A DNA stretch of 64,000 bases from Bacteriovoracia bacterium. GTDB lineage: Bacteria > Bdellovibrionota > UBA1018 > CAIPTA01. Where the stretch lies: positions 32,001-96,000 of the forward strand of contig JBFWVL010000004.1 of the NCBI GenBank assembly GCA_050246755.1, written 5' to 3'. The stretch's first letter is position 1. The number at the start of each line of letters is the position of its first letter. A program made the position numbers and the translations under genes. The notes under the pieces are model-generated. The model was not told the origin of the DNA and searched no databases. It saw nothing but the letters and a program-made list of their open reading frames with translations. Below are positions 3,071 through 30,617 of the stretch, in pieces.

Positions 3071-3376
3071 ATGTCTGAACTCGTTTCGCCAGAAGTAACC
3101 CGGAAAATTGCGCATTTAGCGCGCCTAAAAATTACGGAGCCCGAAGTGGCCCAGTACACCAAAGAACTCGAAAAAATTCTGGGCATGATCGCCCAGCTTT
3201 CCGAGGTGAACGTGGATGGGGTGGAGCCTTTAGTGCACGCGGTGCAAACCGGAACGCATTTCCGGGAAGACGAGGCGATCCAGCTTCCGGAAGAAGAAGT
3301 AAAACGAATTTTGAATTGTTCGGAACAGTCGCTCTACGAACAGTTTCGCGTGCCGCAAGTGATTGGAGGCGAGTGA
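3071..3376 (+). CDS. gatC: Asp/Glu-tRNA amidotransferase subunit C
   Basis: KIAHLARL...LSEVNVDGVEPL...FREDE...FRVPQVI; lies directly upstream of gatA. Confidence 0.93.
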   Translation: MSELVSPEVTRKIAHLARLKITEPEVAQYTKELEKILGMIAQLSEVNVDGVEPLVHAVQTGTHFREDEAIQLPEEEVKRILNCSEQSLYEQFRVPQVIGGE

Positions 3377-4857
3377 TGCAATTCCCCCGTCATACTTTGA
3401 AGAAAGCCTGGGAATGGAAAGAACAGCTCAACGCCAAGAAAATTTCCGCCACCGAATTGGCCAAGGAGTATCTAAGCCGCGCGAAGGCCGATCAGACGAA
3501 TTCTTTTATCGGCCTCATGGAGAATGAGGCTCTGGCTGCCGCGAAGGAAGTAGACGCGGGAAAGCGGACGGGACCTTTGGCGGGAATTCCCATCGGCCTC
3601 AAAGACAATCTGGTTACCCTCGGCGTGCGCACGACTTGCGGTTCGAAGATTTTGGAGCATTATATTCCACCCTATAGCGGCACCGTGGTGAAGAAAATGG
3701 AAGCCGCCGGCACCTTGCCGGTAGGAAAGTGCAACCTCGATGAGTTCGCCATGGGTTCTTCCAATGAGAACTCCGCTTTCGGCGCCGTGAAACTGCCGCA
3801 GGACCATGCTCGCGTTCCCGGAGGTAGTTCCGGCGGCTCGGCCGCCGCGGTGGCGGGGAATCTTTCGGTGGTGGCATTGGGTTCCGATACGGGCGGCTCG
3901 GTTCGCCAGCCCGCCAGTTTTTGCGGGGTAGTGGGACTCAAGCCTACTTATGGACGCGTGAGCCGTTTTGGCCTAGTGGCGTTCGCTTCCTCGCTCGATC
4001 AAATTGGCCCGCTCGGCCTCGATGCCCAGGATACCGCCGATTTGCTCGAGGGCATTTCTGGTTTCGATACCTGGGATTCCACCTCGATCGAAAAGCCCGT
4101 TCCGCAGTATGGGAAAGCCGTGGAAAGAATCCGGAAAGATTCCGCGCACCGCCAGAGTTTCACCAAAAACCTACGCGTAGGCGTTCCTAAAGAATTTTTC
4201 GCCGATGGGCTGGATCCCACCGTGCGCCAGCAAGTGGAAAAAGCGATCGATGCCCTCAAGGGCGCCGGCGCCAAGATCGTGCCCATCACGCTGCCGCATT
4301 CCAAATATTCCCTCGCCGTATACTACGTGGTGGCCGTTTCGGAAGCCTCCGCTAACCTCGAGCGCTACGACGGAGTTCGCTATGGCACCCGCGTTTTACC
4401 TAACGGGCAGCAAACCACCCTGGAAGAAATGTACGAAGCCACCCGCGGAGAATTATTTGGTGCCGAAGTAAAGCGCCGGATCCTGCTCGGTACCTTCACA
4501 CTCTCTTCGGGCTACTACGACGCCTACTACCGCCGCGCCTGCCAAGTAAGAAATTTGATCACCCAGGATTTTGCGAAAGCCTTTCAGGAGGTAGACGTAA
4601 TCGCCGGTCCAACTACGCCCACCGTTTCTTTCGCGCGCGGCTCGAAAACCAGTGATCCGCTTTCGATGTACCTCTCGGATATTTACACCGTGCCCGTGAA
4701 TCTCGCCGGCTTGCCCGCCGTGTCGATGCCCTTCGGCACCGGGGAAAAGGGATTGCCCGTGGGGCTCCAGTTCATCGGCGCTCCGTGGAGCGAAGAAAAA
4801 CTACTCGAAACGGTGGCCGCCACCGAGATCCTCCACGACGAAGGGAAGGGAGCTTAA
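3376..4857 (+). CDS. gatA: Asp/Glu-tRNA amidotransferase subunit A
   Basis: Amidase signature GGSSGGSAAAV, LGSDTGGSVRQPA, EVKRRILLG. ATG at 3376 overlaps the gatC stop (TGATG). Confidence 0.96.
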   Translation: MQFPRHTLKKAWEWKEQLNAKKISATELAKEYLSRAKADQTNSFIGLMENEALAAAKEVDAGKRTGPLAGIPIGLKDNLVTLGVRTTCGSKILEHYIPPYSGTVVKKMEAAGTLPVGKCNLDEFAMGSSNENSAFGAVKLPQDHARVPGGSSGGSAAAVAGNLSVVALGSDTGGSVRQPASFCGVVGLKPTYGRVSRFGLVAFASSLDQIGPLGLDAQDTADLLEGISGFDTWDSTSIEKPVPQYGKAVERIRKDSAHRQSFTKNLRVGVPKEFFADGLDPTVRQQVEKAIDALKGAGAKIVPITLPHSKYSLAVYYVVAVSEASANLERYDGVRYGTRVLPNGQQTTLEEMYEATRGELFGAEVKRRILLGTFTLSSGYYDAYYRRACQVRNLITQDFAKAFQEVDVIAGPTTPTVSFARGSKTSDPLSMYLSDIYTVPVNLAGLPAVSMPFGTGEKGLPVGLQFIGAPWSEEKLLETVAATEILHDEGKGA

Positions 4858-4858
4858 G

Positions 4859-6328
4859 ATGCCGCAACCTACCTATAATGGATTCGAAACCGTAATCGGC
4901 CTCGAGGTGCACGCGCAGCTCGCCACCAATTCGAAGCTGTTTTCGGCTTCCCCCAATAAATATGGGGTGGCTCCGAATCGCAATATCAACGCCGTGTGCA
5001 CGGCGCAGCCGGGTGCCCTGCCGGTGCTTAACCGCAAAGCCGTGGAATTCGCGATCCGTGCTGGTCTCGCCACGAACTGCAAGATTCGCAACGTGAGCGT
5101 ATTCTCGCGGAAAAATTATTTTTACCCCGATCTTCCGAAGGGCTACCAAATTTCCCAGTTCGATAAACCGATCTGCGAAGAGGGACACCTCGAGATCGAG
5201 TTCGAAAACGAACCCGGCGTGCGAGAGTCCAAAAAAATTGGCATTACTCGCATCCACATGGAAGAAGACGCAGGCAAGAGCCAGCATATGGCCGGATTTT
5301 CTTTGGTGGATTTGAATCGGGCGGGAACTCCGCTCATCGAAATCGTATCGGAACCTGATTTTCGCGGACCCGCCGAAGCGGCTGCTTACCTGCGTAAGCT
5401 ACGCGCCATTCTCCAGTACATCGAGGTCTGCGACGGGAATATGCAGGAAGGAAACTTTCGCTGCGACGCCAACGTATCGGTGCGCCGGATCGGCGAGCAA
5501 AAATTGGGCACCCGCGCGGAGCTCAAGAACCTCAACTCTTTCCGGTTCGTGGAAAAAGCGATCGAATACGAGATCCATCGCCAGATCAACGTGATCACCT
5601 CGGGGGGGCGCGTGATCCAGGAAACCCGGCTCTACGATTCGGCCAAGAACGTAACCCAGTCCATGCGCTCTAAAGAGGATGCGCATGATTATCGCTATTT
5701 CCCGGATCCCGATCTGCCACCGCTGAACGTGGATAATGCCTGGATCGAAAAAGTTAGGTCCGCCTTGCCGGAGCTGCCCGACGCCAAGGCCCAGCGCTTC
5801 GTGAAAGAGTTCGGATTGCCCGAATACGACGCGAAAGTAATTACTTCTTCCAAAGCGCTGGCAGCGTTCTACGAAAAGGCCGTGGCGAAATCCTTAGGCG
5901 AACCCAAGCTCGTCTCGAACTGGCTGATGACGGAAGTACTCCGCAAGCTGAAAGAGAACGAAAAAGAAATCGAAGACTGCCCCTTCACTGCCGAAAATCT
6001 CGGGGAACTCGTGGCGCTCATCAAGGGCGGCGAGATTTCTTCCAAGATCGCGAAAACGGTATTTGAGGACATGTGGGCTGAAGGAAAAGCCCCGGCCGCG
6101 ATCGTGAAAGAGAAAGGGCTTGTGCAGGTATCCGATCCCGGCGTGATCGAAGATGCGATGCGCCGGGTGATGGCGGCCAGTCCTAAGAACGTGGAAGAAT
6201 ACCGCGCCGGCAAAGAAAAGCTGTTCGGATTCTTCATCGGGCAGATGATGAAAGAAACCCAGGGGAAAGCTAACCCGGGTCTCGTAAACGATATTGTGAA
6301 AGCCTTTCTTAAGGGAGAGAAGTCATGA
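4859..6328 (+). CDS. gatB: Asp/Glu-tRNA amidotransferase subunit B
   Basis: IGLEVHAQL, RKNYFYPDLPKGYQISQ, HMEEDAGK, DLNRAGTPLIEIV, YRYFPDPDL. Confidence 0.97.
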   Translation: MPQPTYNGFETVIGLEVHAQLATNSKLFSASPNKYGVAPNRNINAVCTAQPGALPVLNRKAVEFAIRAGLATNCKIRNVSVFSRKNYFYPDLPKGYQISQFDKPICEEGHLEIEFENEPGVRESKKIGITRIHMEEDAGKSQHMAGFSLVDLNRAGTPLIEIVSEPDFRGPAEAAAYLRKLRAILQYIEVCDGNMQEGNFRCDANVSVRRIGEQKLGTRAELKNLNSFRFVEKAIEYEIHRQINVITSGGRVIQETRLYDSAKNVTQSMRSKEDAHDYRYFPDPDLPPLNVDNAWIEKVRSALPELPDAKAQRFVKEFGLPEYDAKVITSSKALAAFYEKAVAKSLGEPKLVSNWLMTEVLRKLKENEKEIEDCPFTAENLGELVALIKGGEISSKIAKTVFEDMWAEGKAPAAIVKEKGLVQVSDPGVIEDAMRRVMAASPKNVEEYRAGKEKLFGFFIGQMMKETQGKANPGLVNDIVKAFLKGEKS

Positions 6329-26578: not shown

Positions 26579-28210
26579 CTAAGGTAGACGGAAAACCTTT
26601 CCCCACGAGGGAGGCTGCGCGCCGTTTTGGGCGCCGCATACGCTCGTGCCGAAAGGAAGTTGCACCATTTCTACATAATCCTGCGGCAAATTCCAAAGCT
26701 CAGTGCGTTGGAAAAGCCCGGGGCCCCGGGGGGTGGTCACGAGAATATCATTCACTAGGCGGCGCTGGATGCGCGGCGTGAGCAGAATTGGATCGAACGC
26801 GAAAATAATCTTCCGGCCGGCATTGGTTTCCACCGCGGTACCGCCCTGAGAAAGCATGGAAGTGAGGTAGGCGGGCAGGTTCAGCCGGCTCGTATCTATG
26901 GGAAGGAAGCAGCCGTTCGGCCCGGTGGGAGCAAACCCCAGCATTTGAAGCGGAAGGCCTTGGCCCATAGAAGGGTGCGGGGCCTGTGAACTGCCCGTCC
27001 TCTCGATAATATCTGCGCGCGAAAGGCGGCCTTCGCGCGACATTAAGATGGCGGCACCCGCCGCTACCATGGCGGCCGAGTTCGAAGTTCCCTTGAAGTT
27101 TTCTTCTTTCGATAGCGAAACCAGGGAATTGGTCCAGAGCTCGGGTTTTTGCTGCCGATTCGAAATGCTGGTGCGCTCCGAATCGAGGGCGCCAACCGTT
27201 ATAGCTCGTACATTGTCGGCCGGAGGAAGCACGCTTTCATTTTTATCGGCGCTTGCCATGGAAAGCGAATCGCCGTTCACGATGATGCGGAGGCGGTCGC
27301 TACCGGCGAAATTTTTGGAACGATCCTTTACGCGCAGGAAATAAAGGCCGGGCTTTACCTTGGCGGTGATGATCTCGCGGGGATATTTAGAGGTGCCGGG
27401 ACGCTCGACCTTCTCTTTCGTCTGCTGGAGGCTCGAGCTCTGGATCACGTTGAGCGTATCGTCGGTGAGCACGAAGTCGAGGTCTTTGTCGGAGCCTTGT
27501 TCCACGTCATCGGAGAAATCATTCCAGCTGAGCACGGCCCGCAGCATGCATTCTTTAGCGGGATTTTTCTCGCAGCGTACTTCCAGGCCTTGGTTGCGGT
27601 TGGGGAGGGTAACCCAGTCGTCCTCGCCGGTTTGGATTCCGCCGTTGAAAGTGGTGGCGCCCACATTTCCGGAGTTATTGATCCAGAGAATTCCCGAATC
27701 GATGGCTTTATCGATGAGCTTATTGATGAAGCCGCGCCCATCGAAATTTCCTCCATATTCCCAGGTTTGGGAATAAAGCACGATGTCGATCTTATTGCGG
27801 ACCGCATCGTCGATCGCGGCTTTTAGATTGGAGTAGCCGAAGGTATTGTAGAGGTGGAATTCCGCGGGAGCGTAGCGGCCGTCGGTACCGCCCAGGGAAA
27901 GCATGCTCCAGAGAATGCGCGCCATATAGAAACCGTGAGTCTCTTCTTCGCCCTGGGGCGGAACGGGGCCACGGTGAATTTTCGTATTTTTGGGAAGAGA
28001 GCGGCCGATTTCTTTTCCGGCGCCCTGGAAGCCATTGTCGAATATGGCGATTTTTAAGCGGCGTTGGGAACGCTGGCCTTCGGAAAAGTAGGGACGCAGA
28101 TTCAGTCCCTCGATCATCTGATCAAGGTTCTGAAACTGCGCTCCTCGGTCCGCCGCGACGGCAGATACAGAAAAAGCGATCGCGAAAATTCCGAGGAGAA
28201 CAGTTTTCAT
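26579..28210 (-). CDS. Secreted subtilisin-like (S8) serine protease
   Basis: Signal peptide; catalytic triad IAIFDNGF / THG / FKGTSNSAAMVAAGAA; oxyanion NSGN; beta-sandwich insertion (LSWND...DLDF). Confidence 0.85.
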   Translation of the reverse strand: MKTVLLGIFAIAFSVSAVAADRGAQFQNLDQMIEGLNLRPYFSEGQRSQRRLKIAIFDNGFQGAGKEIGRSLPKNTKIHRGPVPPQGEEETHGFYMARILWSMLSLGGTDGRYAPAEFHLYNTFGYSNLKAAIDDAVRNKIDIVLYSQTWEYGGNFDGRGFINKLIDKAIDSGILWINNSGNVGATTFNGGIQTGEDDWVTLPNRNQGLEVRCEKNPAKECMLRAVLSWNDFSDDVEQGSDKDLDFVLTDDTLNVIQSSSLQQTKEKVERPGTSKYPREIITAKVKPGLYFLRVKDRSKNFAGSDRLRIIVNGDSLSMASADKNESVLPPADNVRAITVGALDSERTSISNRQQKPELWTNSLVSLSKEENFKGTSNSAAMVAAGAAILMSREGRLSRADIIERTGSSQAPHPSMGQGLPLQMLGFAPTGPNGCFLPIDTSRLNLPAYLTSMLSQGGTAVETNAGRKIIFAFDPILLTPRIQRRLVNDILVTTPRGPGLFQRTELWNLPQDYVEMVQLPFGTSVCGAQNGAQPPSWGKVFRLP

Positions 28211-28225
28211 AGAGCCCCTAAGCTA

Positions 28226-28648
28226 CTAGTACCAGCGGTAGTAGTAGTAGTTACAGTTGTTATACGGATTGTAGTAGTTGTAGTAGGCGTTATACGAATA
28301 CTGGTAACCGTAATAGTAGTACGTGGGGTACGAGTAGCTATAGTTATTCCAGTAGAAATACCAGCCGCTCGAAGAGCTGTCGTTATCGAGTTCACCGCGT
28401 TGCTTGTCCGTATTTTTCATGGCAATGAATTTTTTGCCATCAAAGTTTTGGGGTTTAGCGGCGAGTTTGCTGCTGGAGTGAAGAACCGACACTGCACCCG
28501 TGGCTTTGTCCACTTTCATTACCAGCGTTTGCGGTAGGTCGGCGGCGTGGCGACGAGCGTTTTTTACTTGGTCTTCATTGTCGAGTTCATTTGCGTAAAC
28601 AGAAGCCATTGGCGCGAGAGCCAGGGCCAACAATAGTACTAGTTTCAT
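28226..28648 (-). CDS. Secreted precursor-like protein with Tyr/Asn-rich C-terminal peptide
   Basis: GGAGG RBS; signal peptide MKLVLLLALALAPMASVYA; ELDN motif twice; last 46 aa contain 22 Tyr. Confidence 0.8.
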   Translation of the reverse strand: MKLVLLLALALAPMASVYANELDNEDQVKNARRHAADLPQTLVMKVDKATGAVSVLHSSSKLAAKPQNFDGKKFIAMKNTDKQRGELDNDSSSSGWYFYWNNYSYSYPTYYYYGYQYSYNAYYNYYNPYNNCNYYYYRWY

Positions 28649-28857
28649 GATCAACCTCCCCGTTGATTTGGTTATGTCTGAGGCGGCTAAATACCGCAAA
28701 ATGACGGATTGCGCAATTTGCAAATCGACCGACGCGCTCCATTACCCTGGTTTATTCTTTTTTCTTTAGTGATTTCAATAATTTGAATAATGCAGTAATA
28801 CGCCGCACTTACGTTGAGATCTCTTAAGTAAGTGCGCAAAAACACCGTTGGTAAGGA

Positions 28858-29283
28858 GTGAGATTCTTCACTTTCCTAATGGTGCTGATTTTGTCCGGAT
28901 GCGGAACTGCGATTCGTCCTTCCGTGACCAAAAATTCAGCCACCAAACCTACCGACGATTCCTTCTTCGTGATTCAGTTCGATCCGCCTTCTAGTTCGGT
29001 GGCCGCCATTCCCACCACAATTAATATTACTTTTAGCCAGACCGATTTAAACGTTCCCTCACTGAACGCCCTCACGCACTTCAATATGATTTGCAATGGG
29101 TTCGCTTTCGCCGCCGCGAGCGTAGTGTATTCTTCGGGAAGTATCATTACGGCCGTCACGATGCCGGCCATCACGGGATTTCCTTCGGGCACCGTTTGCC
29201 AATTCATCGTTTCGGCTAACCTGCAGAATTCCGAGGGAGTGCACCTAAGCGGTTTACGTATGGCCGAGTACCGGCTGTTGTAG
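28858..29283 (+). CDS. Lipoprotein with Ig-like (Big_5-type) domain
   Basis: Lipobox LSGC; DPP...PTTINITFSQ...VSANLQNSEG pattern. Confidence 0.6.
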   Translation: MRFFTFLMVLILSGCGTAIRPSVTKNSATKPTDDSFFVIQFDPPSSSVAAIPTTINITFSQTDLNVPSLNALTHFNMICNGFAFAAASVVYSSGSIITAVTMPAITGFPSGTVCQFIVSANLQNSEGVHLSGLRMAEYRLL

Positions 29284-29440
29284 GCCTAATCTGGCGCTCT
29301 TTTTCCGAGAGATCCATGCGCAGAACGTTTTATTTATTTCAAGTTCTAGTAAGCCTAATTTTATTTTCATTTGCGCCATGACGCACCATTTTTGGGCGCT
29401 TTTCCTTGTAAGCCACAGCGTGGTGCCTTACCGTTAAGCC

Positions 29441-30052
29441 ATGAAATTCGGCCCCAAAATCCTCTGCCTCTTCGCGATGGTAGCCTTATTTCTTCCTGCC
29501 TTTTCTTCCGCCGAGCCGCCACGCCGGAATTTCTATGGTTCGCTCGCCGGAAAGCTTGGGTACGGCAAAGCCTCTTCACTGGACGGCACTTCCGTTCCTT
29601 CGCGCGTGATGCTAGTTCCGGCGCTGGAAGGCGTGCTCGCCCTGCGCTGGAATTATTTCCTTTTGGGAGTGGGGGCCGAGTATGCACTCTGGCAGCAATA
29701 TACCAATCCAAGCGGGCTCGCGGATTCCAACGTGCAGGGAGCTATGATCATCGCTGGGCCGGTGCTGGGAATCTCCGCGGGTAGCGTGCGCCTGCTCGCG
29801 CGGCTTTTTCCTCTTTATTCCTCCTACGATCTTTCCCGGCCGAGTGTTTTGGGTGTGAAGCAGGCATATACCTCGGCCGCTCAGCTTGGGATTCAGGTGC
29901 ACTTCCAGTCGGCGGGATCTTCCTTTTGGGGAATTGAGTACGCGAAAACCGAATTCTCGAAACGAGAGGCTCTCGGAACAGAGTTCACGCTGGCGGCGGG
30001 AAACGAAATGCAATTCAAGACGATAGGGGTGGTCTATGGCTTCTCTTTCTAG
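29441..30052 (+). CDS. Outer-membrane beta-barrel protein
   Basis: Signal peptide, alternating beta strands, C-terminal VVYGFSF BAM signal. Confidence 0.7.
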   Translation: MKFGPKILCLFAMVALFLPAFSSAEPPRRNFYGSLAGKLGYGKASSLDGTSVPSRVMLVPALEGVLALRWNYFLLGVGAEYALWQQYTNPSGLADSNVQGAMIIAGPVLGISAGSVRLLARLFPLYSSYDLSRPSVLGVKQAYTSAAQLGIQVHFQSAGSSFWGIEYAKTEFSKREALGTEFTLAAGNEMQFKTIGVVYGFSF

Positions 30053-30617
30053 ACGCGTGCCTCTTCCTATTTTTTTGCTAGTTATTCTTATTCTTTTTTC
30101 TGCCTGCGGGCAGAGCAAAGGTTATAGCCCCAACTATTCTGGCGGCGGCGCCGCATCGAAAATTAAATATAAAATTTTTGTGACCACGAGGAACGACCTT
30201 TCGGGCGCTTTGCTGGGCACGGCCGGCGCCGACCTTTATTGTAATGCCGATGCCCAAGCCGGCAACGATACTTACAAAGCGCTCATCAGCGTTACGAGCC
30301 GGCAAGCTCCTTCCGCGGACTGGCCGCTAAAAGCGAATACGACTTATTACCGCATCGACGGCACTACCGAAATCGGGACCACCACTGCGGGCGCGATCTT
30401 CTCTGGCACGCTCACCAATTCGGTGAACGCTAGTAACAGTACGGTGTGGACCGGGCTCAGTTCTGGTTTCATTGGGAATAACGAGTGCAGTGGTTTTACC
30501 TCCACGGTAGGGACGGCGCACACGGGACAAAGCGACCAAACTTCGGTGGCCAGTATGATTTCCAACGGCACGAGCAACTGCACCTCCACGCTAAGCCTTT
30601 ACTGCGTTCAGCAGTAA
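30036..30617 (+). CDS. DUF1554 (endostatin-like) lipoprotein
   Basis: Lipobox FSAC; KIFVT...GADLYC...YKALI...DWPLKANTTYYR...VWTG...LYCVQQ. Confidence 0.8.
   Translation: MASLSRRVPLPIFLLVILILFSACGQSKGYSPNYSGGGAASKIKYKIFVTTRNDLSGALLGTAGADLYCNADAQAGNDTYKALISVTSRQAPSADWPLKANTTYYRIDGTTEIGTTTAGAIFSGTLTNSVNASNSTVWTGLSSGFIGNNECSGFTSTVGTAHTGQSDQTSVASMISNGTSNCTSTLSLYCVQQ

Follow-up and report, generated by a model that had tools for sequence, protein, structure and literature searches.

A Tyr-rich secreted protein and a prodomain-less subtilase form a conserved gene pair in Bdellovibrionota, with a possible cut-and-release role

Why is a small secreted protein with a Tyr-rich tail encoded directly ahead of a secreted subtilase that has almost no prodomain? 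We examined this arrangement in a stretch of 64,000 nucleotides from a Bacteriovoracia bacterium (contig JBFWVL010000004.1, positions 32,001 to 96,000; hereafter the window), and all coordinates given here are window positions unless a locus code (L with a number) is named. The small gene (P0001; 28226-28648, minus strand) encodes 140 amino acids (aa) plus the stop, and the protease gene (P0002; 26579-28210, minus strand, 543 aa) begins 15 nt past that stop. The first-pass annotation of this locus had both open reading frames (ORFs), their motifs, the 15-nt gap and the residue counts of the tail right, but the strand had to be corrected, both genes being on the minus strand. We found that the two genes form a conserved pair, of the kind expected from a protease with a dedicated substrate or partner, and that neither the pair nor the small protein family was described in the literature that we searched (a statement that holds for these searches only). 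We give a probability of roughly 40% to the reading in which the protease cuts the small protein at a conserved junction and frees an aromatic, self-associating tail.

The protease was present in 10 out of 41 related genomes, and in 9 of these 10 loci it was preceded, directly and on the same strand, by an ORF with an aromatic tail, also where protease identity was as low as 35%. In the tenth relative (G017), 2 kb separate the small gene from the protease downstream of it, and this interval contains another S8 gene and a minus-strand gene. The order in that genome (L091 2065-2451, 2908-3819 and 4457-5893) was a small gene that has the junction ELD motif but lacks the N-terminal one, a classical S8 protein of 304 aa (VLDSGIN, HGTFVAG; no obvious signal peptide), the minus-strand gene, and the orthologous protease. 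The public species genomes provided 80 loci: 70 were flagged by script, one (L034) was added by inspection, and three with less than 200 nt of upstream sequence were set aside. The aromatic-tail gene immediately preceded the protease in 71 of the 77 judgeable loci, which include named Bdellovibrio bacteriovorus strains (L012, L013 and L019). The other six, without such an ORF anywhere, encode S8 lipoproteins of ~480 residues. These partner-less proteins formed one clade in a quick tree (SH-like approximate likelihood ratio test, SH-aLRT, 92; one change), from which 6 of the 89 protease ORFs were excluded for being shorter than 400 aa. Their C-terminal domain is absent, with matches ending near residue 403-430, and the insert described below is kept (matches span query residues 24-430).

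Across the phylum, the small gene was found in 39 of 301 genomes and the protease family (E<=1e-30) in 82, and all 39 genomes with the small gene also hold the protease. According to the tables, which were read by hand, the small gene was adjacent, upstream and on the same strand in 32 of these 39 genomes, divergent within 1 kb in 3, and at 2-2.5 kb in 2; in the remaining two, the genes fell on separate contigs, and the protease stood at the end of its own. A divergent arrangement, with the genes ~0.9 kb apart, was seen in one family of the phylum (f17; L094 1826-2368, minus strand, and 3162-4970, plus strand; also G052 and G108), in which the proteases have ~600-650 aa and a different C-terminal region, and the first motif of the small protein reads DQLDNE or DQIENE. 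Second Tyr-rich copies without an adjoining protease were present in G248 and G286 (L092 2850-3380 and L093 3060-3575; 177 and 172 aa, respectively). Finally, two genomes that share their genus code with pair-bearing genomes (G169 and G228) had the syntenic locus without the small gene. Their protease orthologues (L097 4829-5956, minus strand; L098 4177-5262, plus strand) were 362-376 aa long and had lost the oxyanion GN and the whole insert, with the His changed to Arg in one genome; the C-terminal domain was kept and an acidic Pro-rich end gained. This shortened orthologue looks like a pseudo-protease or a decay product.

The first-pass annotation had named unlinked homologues as an outcome that would speak against its two-gene reading; instead, the pair stays linked phylum-wide (71 of 77 loci; 39 of 39 genomes). 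All the evidence in hand is of the adjacency type, which would also be produced by two genes that are merely neighbours in one transcription unit, without any functional tie. Such a coincidence is highly improbable, given that adjacency was kept down to about 35% protease identity while the other neighbours changed, that the co-occurrence was complete in the 39 genomes, and that the pair decayed jointly at the syntenic locus of G169 and G228.

We then clustered all the ORFs of 90 loci and found only two widely shared families, the protease (89 loci) and the small protein (71 loci by BLAST cluster), while the next most shared ORF family was present in 25 of the 90 loci. The cassette is self-contained: it consists of two genes, with no conserved third gene. 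Linkage down to 35% protease identity together with the lack of a third conserved gene fits a protease that travels with its own substrate or partner. Because there are no further conserved genes, we ruled out two known kinds of system, a cluster for peptides made on the ribosome and modified after translation (RiPPs), for which no conserved modifying enzyme or transporter was found (the next family being the one at 25 of 90 loci), and a curli/Fap-type amyloid system, for which there were no conserved nucleator or outer-membrane secretion genes and the small protein belongs to no family of Pfam or NCBIfam. Thus, the earlier idea of a two-gene system is retained as a linked, self-contained pair, but its RiPP side does not fit, since modifying enzymes are missing.

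The spacers between the two genes were often structured: among the 45 intergenic spacers with 40 nt or more, 25 folded with z<=-3 (1 of the 70 loci was dropped from this analysis, as its protease ORF was not found by the rule of the script). In the named B. bacteriovorus strains, the ~200-nt spacer contained an inverted repeat with 34-nt arms that are 94% complementary (L013 3842-3972, L012 3829-3957 and L019 3803-3933), part of a 168-nt stretch with a folding energy of -102 kcal/mol (z -9.1). This element occurred only once in its genome and was missing in the spacers of L016 and L021; an attenuator or a hairpin that stabilises the mRNA would be a possible role. Structured spacers would agree with a higher output of small protein than of protease.

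The small protein begins with MKLVLLLALALAPMASVYA up to the predicted cleavage point of its signal peptide, followed by NELDNED, a weakly conserved middle part of 58 residues, GELDNDSSSSGW, and the 46-residue tail; RGELDNDSSSSG stands directly before the tail stretch WYFYW...YYYYRWY. A direct count of the 46-aa tail, from G95, gave 22 Tyr, 8 Asn, 3 Trp, 3 Ser, 1 Cys, 1 Arg and no Asp or Glu. The features of the gene are as follows (identity is the mean pairwise value among the linked small proteins):

28655..28661, minus strand: ribosome-binding site GGGGAGG, 6 nt 5' of the small-gene ATG, read from the sequence
28592..28648, minus strand: residues 1-19, Sec-type signal peptide ending in VYA (putative cleavage site)
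28571..28591, minus strand: residues 20-26, NELDNED, first ELD motif and predicted mature N-terminus (identity 0.66)
28397..28570, minus strand: residues 27-84, middle part, a helix-like QVKNARRHAADL and then LPQTLVMKVDKATGAVSVLHS (identity 0.31)
28358..28396, minus strand: residues 85-97, GELDNDSSSSGWY, junction motif and proposed recognition/cleavage site (identity 0.63; cleavage putative)
28229..28357, minus strand: residues 98-140, Tyr/Trp/Asn-rich tail ending in YYYYRWY (the 46-aa version is counted from G95)

Conservation was counted on the 70 script-flagged loci (without L034), and the window was added for the statistics of identity and of the tail and terminus (n=71). The mean pairwise identity was highest in the first motif (0.66) and in the junction (0.63), lower in the tail (0.45), and lowest in the signal peptide (0.32) and the middle part (0.31). 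The junction followed the consensus [VLI]-[KR]-[SNG]-E-L-D-x-[DE]-[SGA]-[GS]-x-S-S-W-[YF]-[FWY], in which E-L-D was found in 70 of 70 sequences, S-S in 63-65 and W in 68. Two ELD motifs were present in 61 of the 70 small proteins. Conservation of ELDN, on which the first-pass reading also depended, is therefore borne out, the ELD motifs being the best-conserved parts of the protein (0.66 and 0.63, with the junction E-L-D in 70 of 70). In the relatives, an AxA-type site directly precedes x-ELDNE, so that the first ELD motif lies one residue past this site, which makes it the predicted mature N-terminus.

The tails downstream of ELDx[DE] were composed of 37% Tyr, 13% Ser, 11% Gly, 9% Asn and 7% Trp, with Asp and Glu together at 1.2% (71 linked proteins). 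Past S-S-W, their median length was 46 residues, and 58 of the 71 had 60 residues or fewer. The C-terminal residue was aromatic in 58 of the 71 (35 Trp, 20 Tyr and 3 Phe), and P108, G114 and several Tyr were at least 90% conserved in an alignment of 32 small proteins. In some lineages and in several metagenomic relatives the tail was expanded, with the junction and the C-terminal Tyr block kept and, between them, an insertion of 100-190 low-complexity residues rich in GY, RGG, Pro or Gln.

The same architecture would also serve the release of a diffusible bioactive peptide, antibacterial or signalling, instead of a material; the tail could, for example, mimic the aromatic C-terminal signal of outer-membrane proteins. 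The aromatic end of 58 out of 71 tails agrees with this, as does the number of predators in the phylum (according to record titles). We nonetheless regard a peptide of this type as very unlikely, as no conserved modifying enzyme, exporter or immunity gene was found nearby, the signal peptide is a normal Sec one, and the product would have 46-190 residues. Furthermore, an uncharged and very Tyr-rich tail that tolerates long GY/RGG inserts is unlike known defined bioactive peptides, and the cassette is missing from some genomes (G169, G228) of the genus that holds G157.

Within its own genome (3.55 Mb), the small gene is single-copy. Its features go beyond chance. It was the only real ORF of that genome with a 40-aa stretch of at least 30% Tyr plus Trp; two other matches of the scan were off-frame Trp/Arg-rich artefacts, and one was exactly at 0.30. 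It was also the sole ORF that combined a signal peptide with ELDx[DE], and the idea of ELD as a genome-wide sorting tag was ruled out because of this single case. Other reading frames across the Tyr-rich tail form long Thr/Ile/Val-rich ORFs (28064-28537, plus strand; 28207-28395, minus strand), and one public protease record (P0065, 595 aa) begins with a stretch of this type, which looks like a start mis-called through the small gene in another frame.

We recovered 49 relatives of the small protein (77-245 residues, among 119 scored candidates), all of them unnamed or named 'hypothetical' and two of them from 'Bdellovibrionota bacterium'. A search of 1.84 billion cluster representatives with the family profile yielded 327 clusters (at 50% identity) with E<=0.001 and 188 with E<=1e-10; the best 150 of the 327 matches had lengths of 110-336 residues. 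Neither the small protein nor its family had a Pfam, NCBIfam or Protein Data Bank (PDB) relative (no Pfam family on P0001 itself; best PDB profile E 0.47). DUF302 matched 9 of 129 family members, with a best E of 0.0062, and was judged a chance match. Of the 53 Pfam families with a match to any of the 129 members (E<=1), the 25 best-represented did not include Inhibitor_I9, and none of the 53 was found on the protein of the window. PepSY, suggested by a VDxxTGxV motif, was rejected: the PF03413 search of 26 genomes gave no match to the small gene, and hhalign gave a probability of 1.2% over 9 columns. Finally, no protein that fuses the small protein with a protease was seen among the best 150 of the 327 matches, nor at E<=0.001 among 1048 longer candidates (the latter being weak evidence).

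The second gene of the cassette, with the spacer that precedes it, is divided as follows:

28211..28225, minus strand: spacer of 15 nt, operon-like, in which no terminator-like site was found
27656..28210, minus strand: protease residues 1-185, signal peptide and then S8 core with Asp58, His92 and oxyanion Asn182 (26-sequence alignment and BPN' profile match)
27251..27655, minus strand: residues 186-320, inserted domain with the beta-strand-like LSWNDF, DKDLDFVL and PGLYFLRVK, between BPN' 159 and 163, beside the substrate cleft
26999..27250, minus strand: residues 321-404, rest of the S8 core, including Ser376 (GTSNSAA; PF00082, BPN' 163-254)
26579..26998, minus strand: residues 405-543 plus the stop, extra C-terminal domain ending in FRLP (alignment)

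The protease carries the motifs FD58NGF, H92GFYM, NSGN182 and GTS376NS. Across 26 aligned relatives, Asp58, His92 and Ser376 did not vary and Asn182 was kept in at least 90%, and NSGN182 aligns with AAGN of subtilisin BPN', i.e. with its oxyanion-hole Asn (N155). Peptidase_S8 (PF00082) was the only Pfam family found on the protein (E 9.7e-9, above the cut-off, residues 316-401), while NCBIfam gave sub-threshold matches only. The profile of the protease family matched BPN' with E 5.6e-14 in two stretches: positions 39-181 correspond to residues 17-159 of the mature enzyme and positions 321-405 to BPN' 163-254. Since the match to mature BPN' starts right after the signal peptide, there is no prodomain, and all 26 aligned relatives begin alike. 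The claim that the protease has almost no prodomain was thus confirmed (profile position 39 equals mature BPN' 17, and PF00082 stands alone), as was the short distance between signal peptide and catalytic Asp, although its value is nearer 38 residues than the 35 given before (the signal peptide ends near A19/A20). Judged by its sequence, the protein is a peptidase S8 with an intact catalytic set and not a classical pre-pro-subtilisin, as the I9 prodomain is lacking.

A protease without any prodomain raises the alternative that the small protein is its dedicated folding helper and/or inhibitor, which would replace the prodomain in trans or guard the periplasm of the producer, with the ELD motifs in the active-site cleft. 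The small gene comes first, mimicking the order of prodomain and catalytic domain, the linkage is tight and the decay joint, and a conserved motif lies exactly at the predicted mature N-terminus; serralysin inhibitors likewise insert their N-terminus into the protease. In Myxococcus, the subtilisin-like PopC is complexed by PopD (PMC6434023). Direct support for a trans-acting prodomain, which the first-pass annotation had also considered, was not found among our results: there was no Inhibitor_I9 match among the 25 families listed, no PDB relative, a PepSY probability of 1.2%, and no fused form among the best 150 matches or the 1048 longer candidates. The middle part, which would presumably be the functional one, is the least conserved (0.31), and the Tyr-rich tail, its expansions of 100-190 residues, for which a prodomain would have no use, and the orphan copies are left unexplained. 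The sister clade of six S8 lipoproteins, also without a prodomain, has no partner. A helper or inhibitor thus seems unlikely.

Two regions of the protease fall outside the S8 core, an insert of about 135-140 residues in the loop adjoining the S1 region and ~135 residues after the core. Neither had a Pfam family at E<=5 when searched alone, and an ESM Atlas search with the insert gave no informative match, the Atlas having no model of the protease. The position of the insert (BPN' 159-163, beside the S1 region) makes it a plausible candidate for a substrate-docking module. The enzyme belongs to a distinct bacterial S8 clade. These domains could instead hold the small protein as an uncut adaptor or anchor: the ELD motifs would dock on the insert or the C-terminal domain, and the aromatic tail would tether the enzyme to a surface, for example the envelope, a polysaccharide or the wall of the prey. 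Binding to glycans or membranes is common among aromatic-rich sequences, two motif copies could correspond to two docking sites, the protease offers two extra domains, and the position-specific conservation of the tail would suit a binding module, as would the confidence of the structural model given below. We found no direct support for such an adaptor, and it is quite unlikely, as the orphan copies and the structured spacers, which suggest unequal expression, fit a 1:1 complex less well, and the partner-less clade retains the insert.

Any account of the cassette has to explain two co-travelling secreted proteins, a motif conserved above its flanks, a constrained aromatic tail and a protease with extra domains by its cleft. 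We favour cutting and release. The first gene would give a Sec-exported pro-protein and the second a prodomain-less S8 protease that recognises ...[KR][SNG]-ELDx[DE]-SSxSSW..., the conserved junction, and makes its cut there or close by. The poorly conserved N-terminal part would then be a solubilising, disposable pro-region, and the uncharged Tyr/Trp/Asn/Ser/Gly-rich C-terminal segment would be the product, which once freed may self-associate or attach to an extracytoplasmic surface, in the role of adhesive, coat or matrix peptide. We infer a product rather than a helper because of the ranking of conservation (motifs above tail above middle part), and because the tail tolerates low-complexity expansions, which are typical of matrix and adhesive proteins and not of inhibitors. 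Orphan second copies of the small gene, as in G248 and G286, would also be expected for substrates, and the frequent structure in the spacers points the same way.

Several points weigh against this reading. Adjacency and co-loss would be equally expected for an inhibitor, a chaperone or an adaptor. The first ELD, one residue past the signal-peptidase site, would be useless as a cleavage site, so that ELD may be a docking or metal-binding motif. The ESM Atlas's own model of the 140-aa protein has a predicted template-modelling score (pTM) of 0.64 and a predicted local distance difference test (pLDDT) of 0.67, and it matched no fold at TM>=0.5 (best structure match TM 0.41; feature matches <=0.84). 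With a pTM of this order, the tail may fold onto the middle part as one compact domain, which would argue against release. Likewise, the position-specific conservation of P108, G114 and Tyr appears more like that of a folded module than of bulk material, and the aromatic positions of the tails did not show the period-2 pattern that simple amphipathic beta-strands would give. Finally, the small-gene profile overlooks some divergent partners that inspection reveals (G024, G028 and G035), and the 43 of 82 genomes with only the protease are consequently an upper bound that can be read as neither presence nor absence.

Taking the cut-and-release reading one step further, the pair may constitute a minimal system for extracellular material, in which a prodomain-less subtilase cuts the acidic ELDx[DE] junction and thereby switches on the self-assembly or adhesion of a Tyr/Trp-rich segment (functional amyloid, glue or coat). 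This is a tentative proposal, possible but on balance doubtful. The material would serve prey attachment, the cell envelope or resting stages, and the system would be a bacterial counterpart of eukaryotic protease-triggered Tyr-rich wall and amyloid systems. One variant that had been suggested for it, a dityrosine-crosslinked matrix, gets no support from the genome: a search of G000 (95.7% complete), in which the control worked, did not find the multicopper oxidase family Cu-oxidase_3, and searches for An_peroxidase and Tyrosinase gave no matches, but their controls were silent too.

The other neighbours of the pair in the window are MscS, HtpX, TerC, a DUF1554 lipoprotein and unknowns. Divergent from the pair (28858-30617, plus strand) there are three small secreted or lipoprotein genes, whose products have 141 aa with a lipobox-like LSGC, 203 aa without a family assignment and 193 aa with DUF1554 (E 2.4e-19); they were not conserved beside the pair in other genomes. 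No sigma-70-like promoter or terminator above expectation was found in or around the pair, and the Rfam and tRNA scans of the window gave no matches. Among the sequencing runs listed for this stretch there were two landfill-metagenome runs of one study, one of which may be its source, and no RNA run.

The phylum consists of mostly predatory bacteria and includes genetically tractable B. bacteriovorus strains, so that these hypotheses are directly testable by knock-outs and co-expression. If a self-assembling Tyr-rich segment is indeed released, the pair would be a very compact bacterial means, of two genes only, to build extracellular material, and would offer a natural supply of adhesive or cross-linkable Tyr-rich peptides. 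If the small protein is instead a helper or inhibitor, it would be a new type of separately encoded subtilase partner, which would help explain how prodomain-less subtilases mature.

Known systems share some of these features. I9 propeptides and free-standing I9-type inhibitors are small alpha/beta modules that fold and then inhibit the enzyme, with their C-terminal residues in the active site. The gene order found here mimics the position of such a module before the catalytic domain, but no Inhibitor_I9 match was seen at the sequence level, and the small protein carries an aromatic tail of 46-190 residues that is not known from I9 modules. In Pmel17, which forms amyloid after furin-type cleavage, and in the Rep1 repellents of Ustilago, released by Kex2, an S8 cut frees a self-assembling surface fragment. 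Those enzymes are of the kexin type and use dibasic sites, whereas here the putative site is the acidic ELDx[DE] and the enzyme belongs to an insert-bearing bacterial clade without a P-domain match. Among RiPP proteases (LanP, PatA/PatG), the PatA/PatG-type enzymes are likewise not known to have a prodomain, and a small precursor gene also stands beside a subtilase; the present precursor differs in its Sec signal peptide and in a presumed product that is long and of low complexity.

In the predatory bacteria themselves, PMC12546842 reports the subtilase Bd2269 and Bd2692 at prey exit, with no Tyr-rich partner in the passages covered. The PopC/PopD/p25 system of Myxococcus xanthus is similar to the present pair in that PopC, a subtilisin-like protease, lacks a classical prodomain, has in PopD a dedicated complexing partner and cuts one specific surface protein (PMC6434023). 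According to the same paper, PopC is without a signal peptide and its secretion is blocked by PopD, which sets this system apart, as does the absence of a Tyr-rich protein. Finally, GAM56 and GAM82 of Eimeria are Tyr-rich secreted precursors, and serine proteases (S8/S1) are believed to process them into the Tyr-rich peptides of which the oocyst wall is built (PMC3770453), the same logic as in the cut-and-release reading. They are eukaryotic and much larger proteins, their genes do not share one operon, and the wall is dityrosine-cross-linked by a peroxidase; what they have in common with the small protein described here is a Tyr-rich secreted precursor, a likeness of composition and not of homology.

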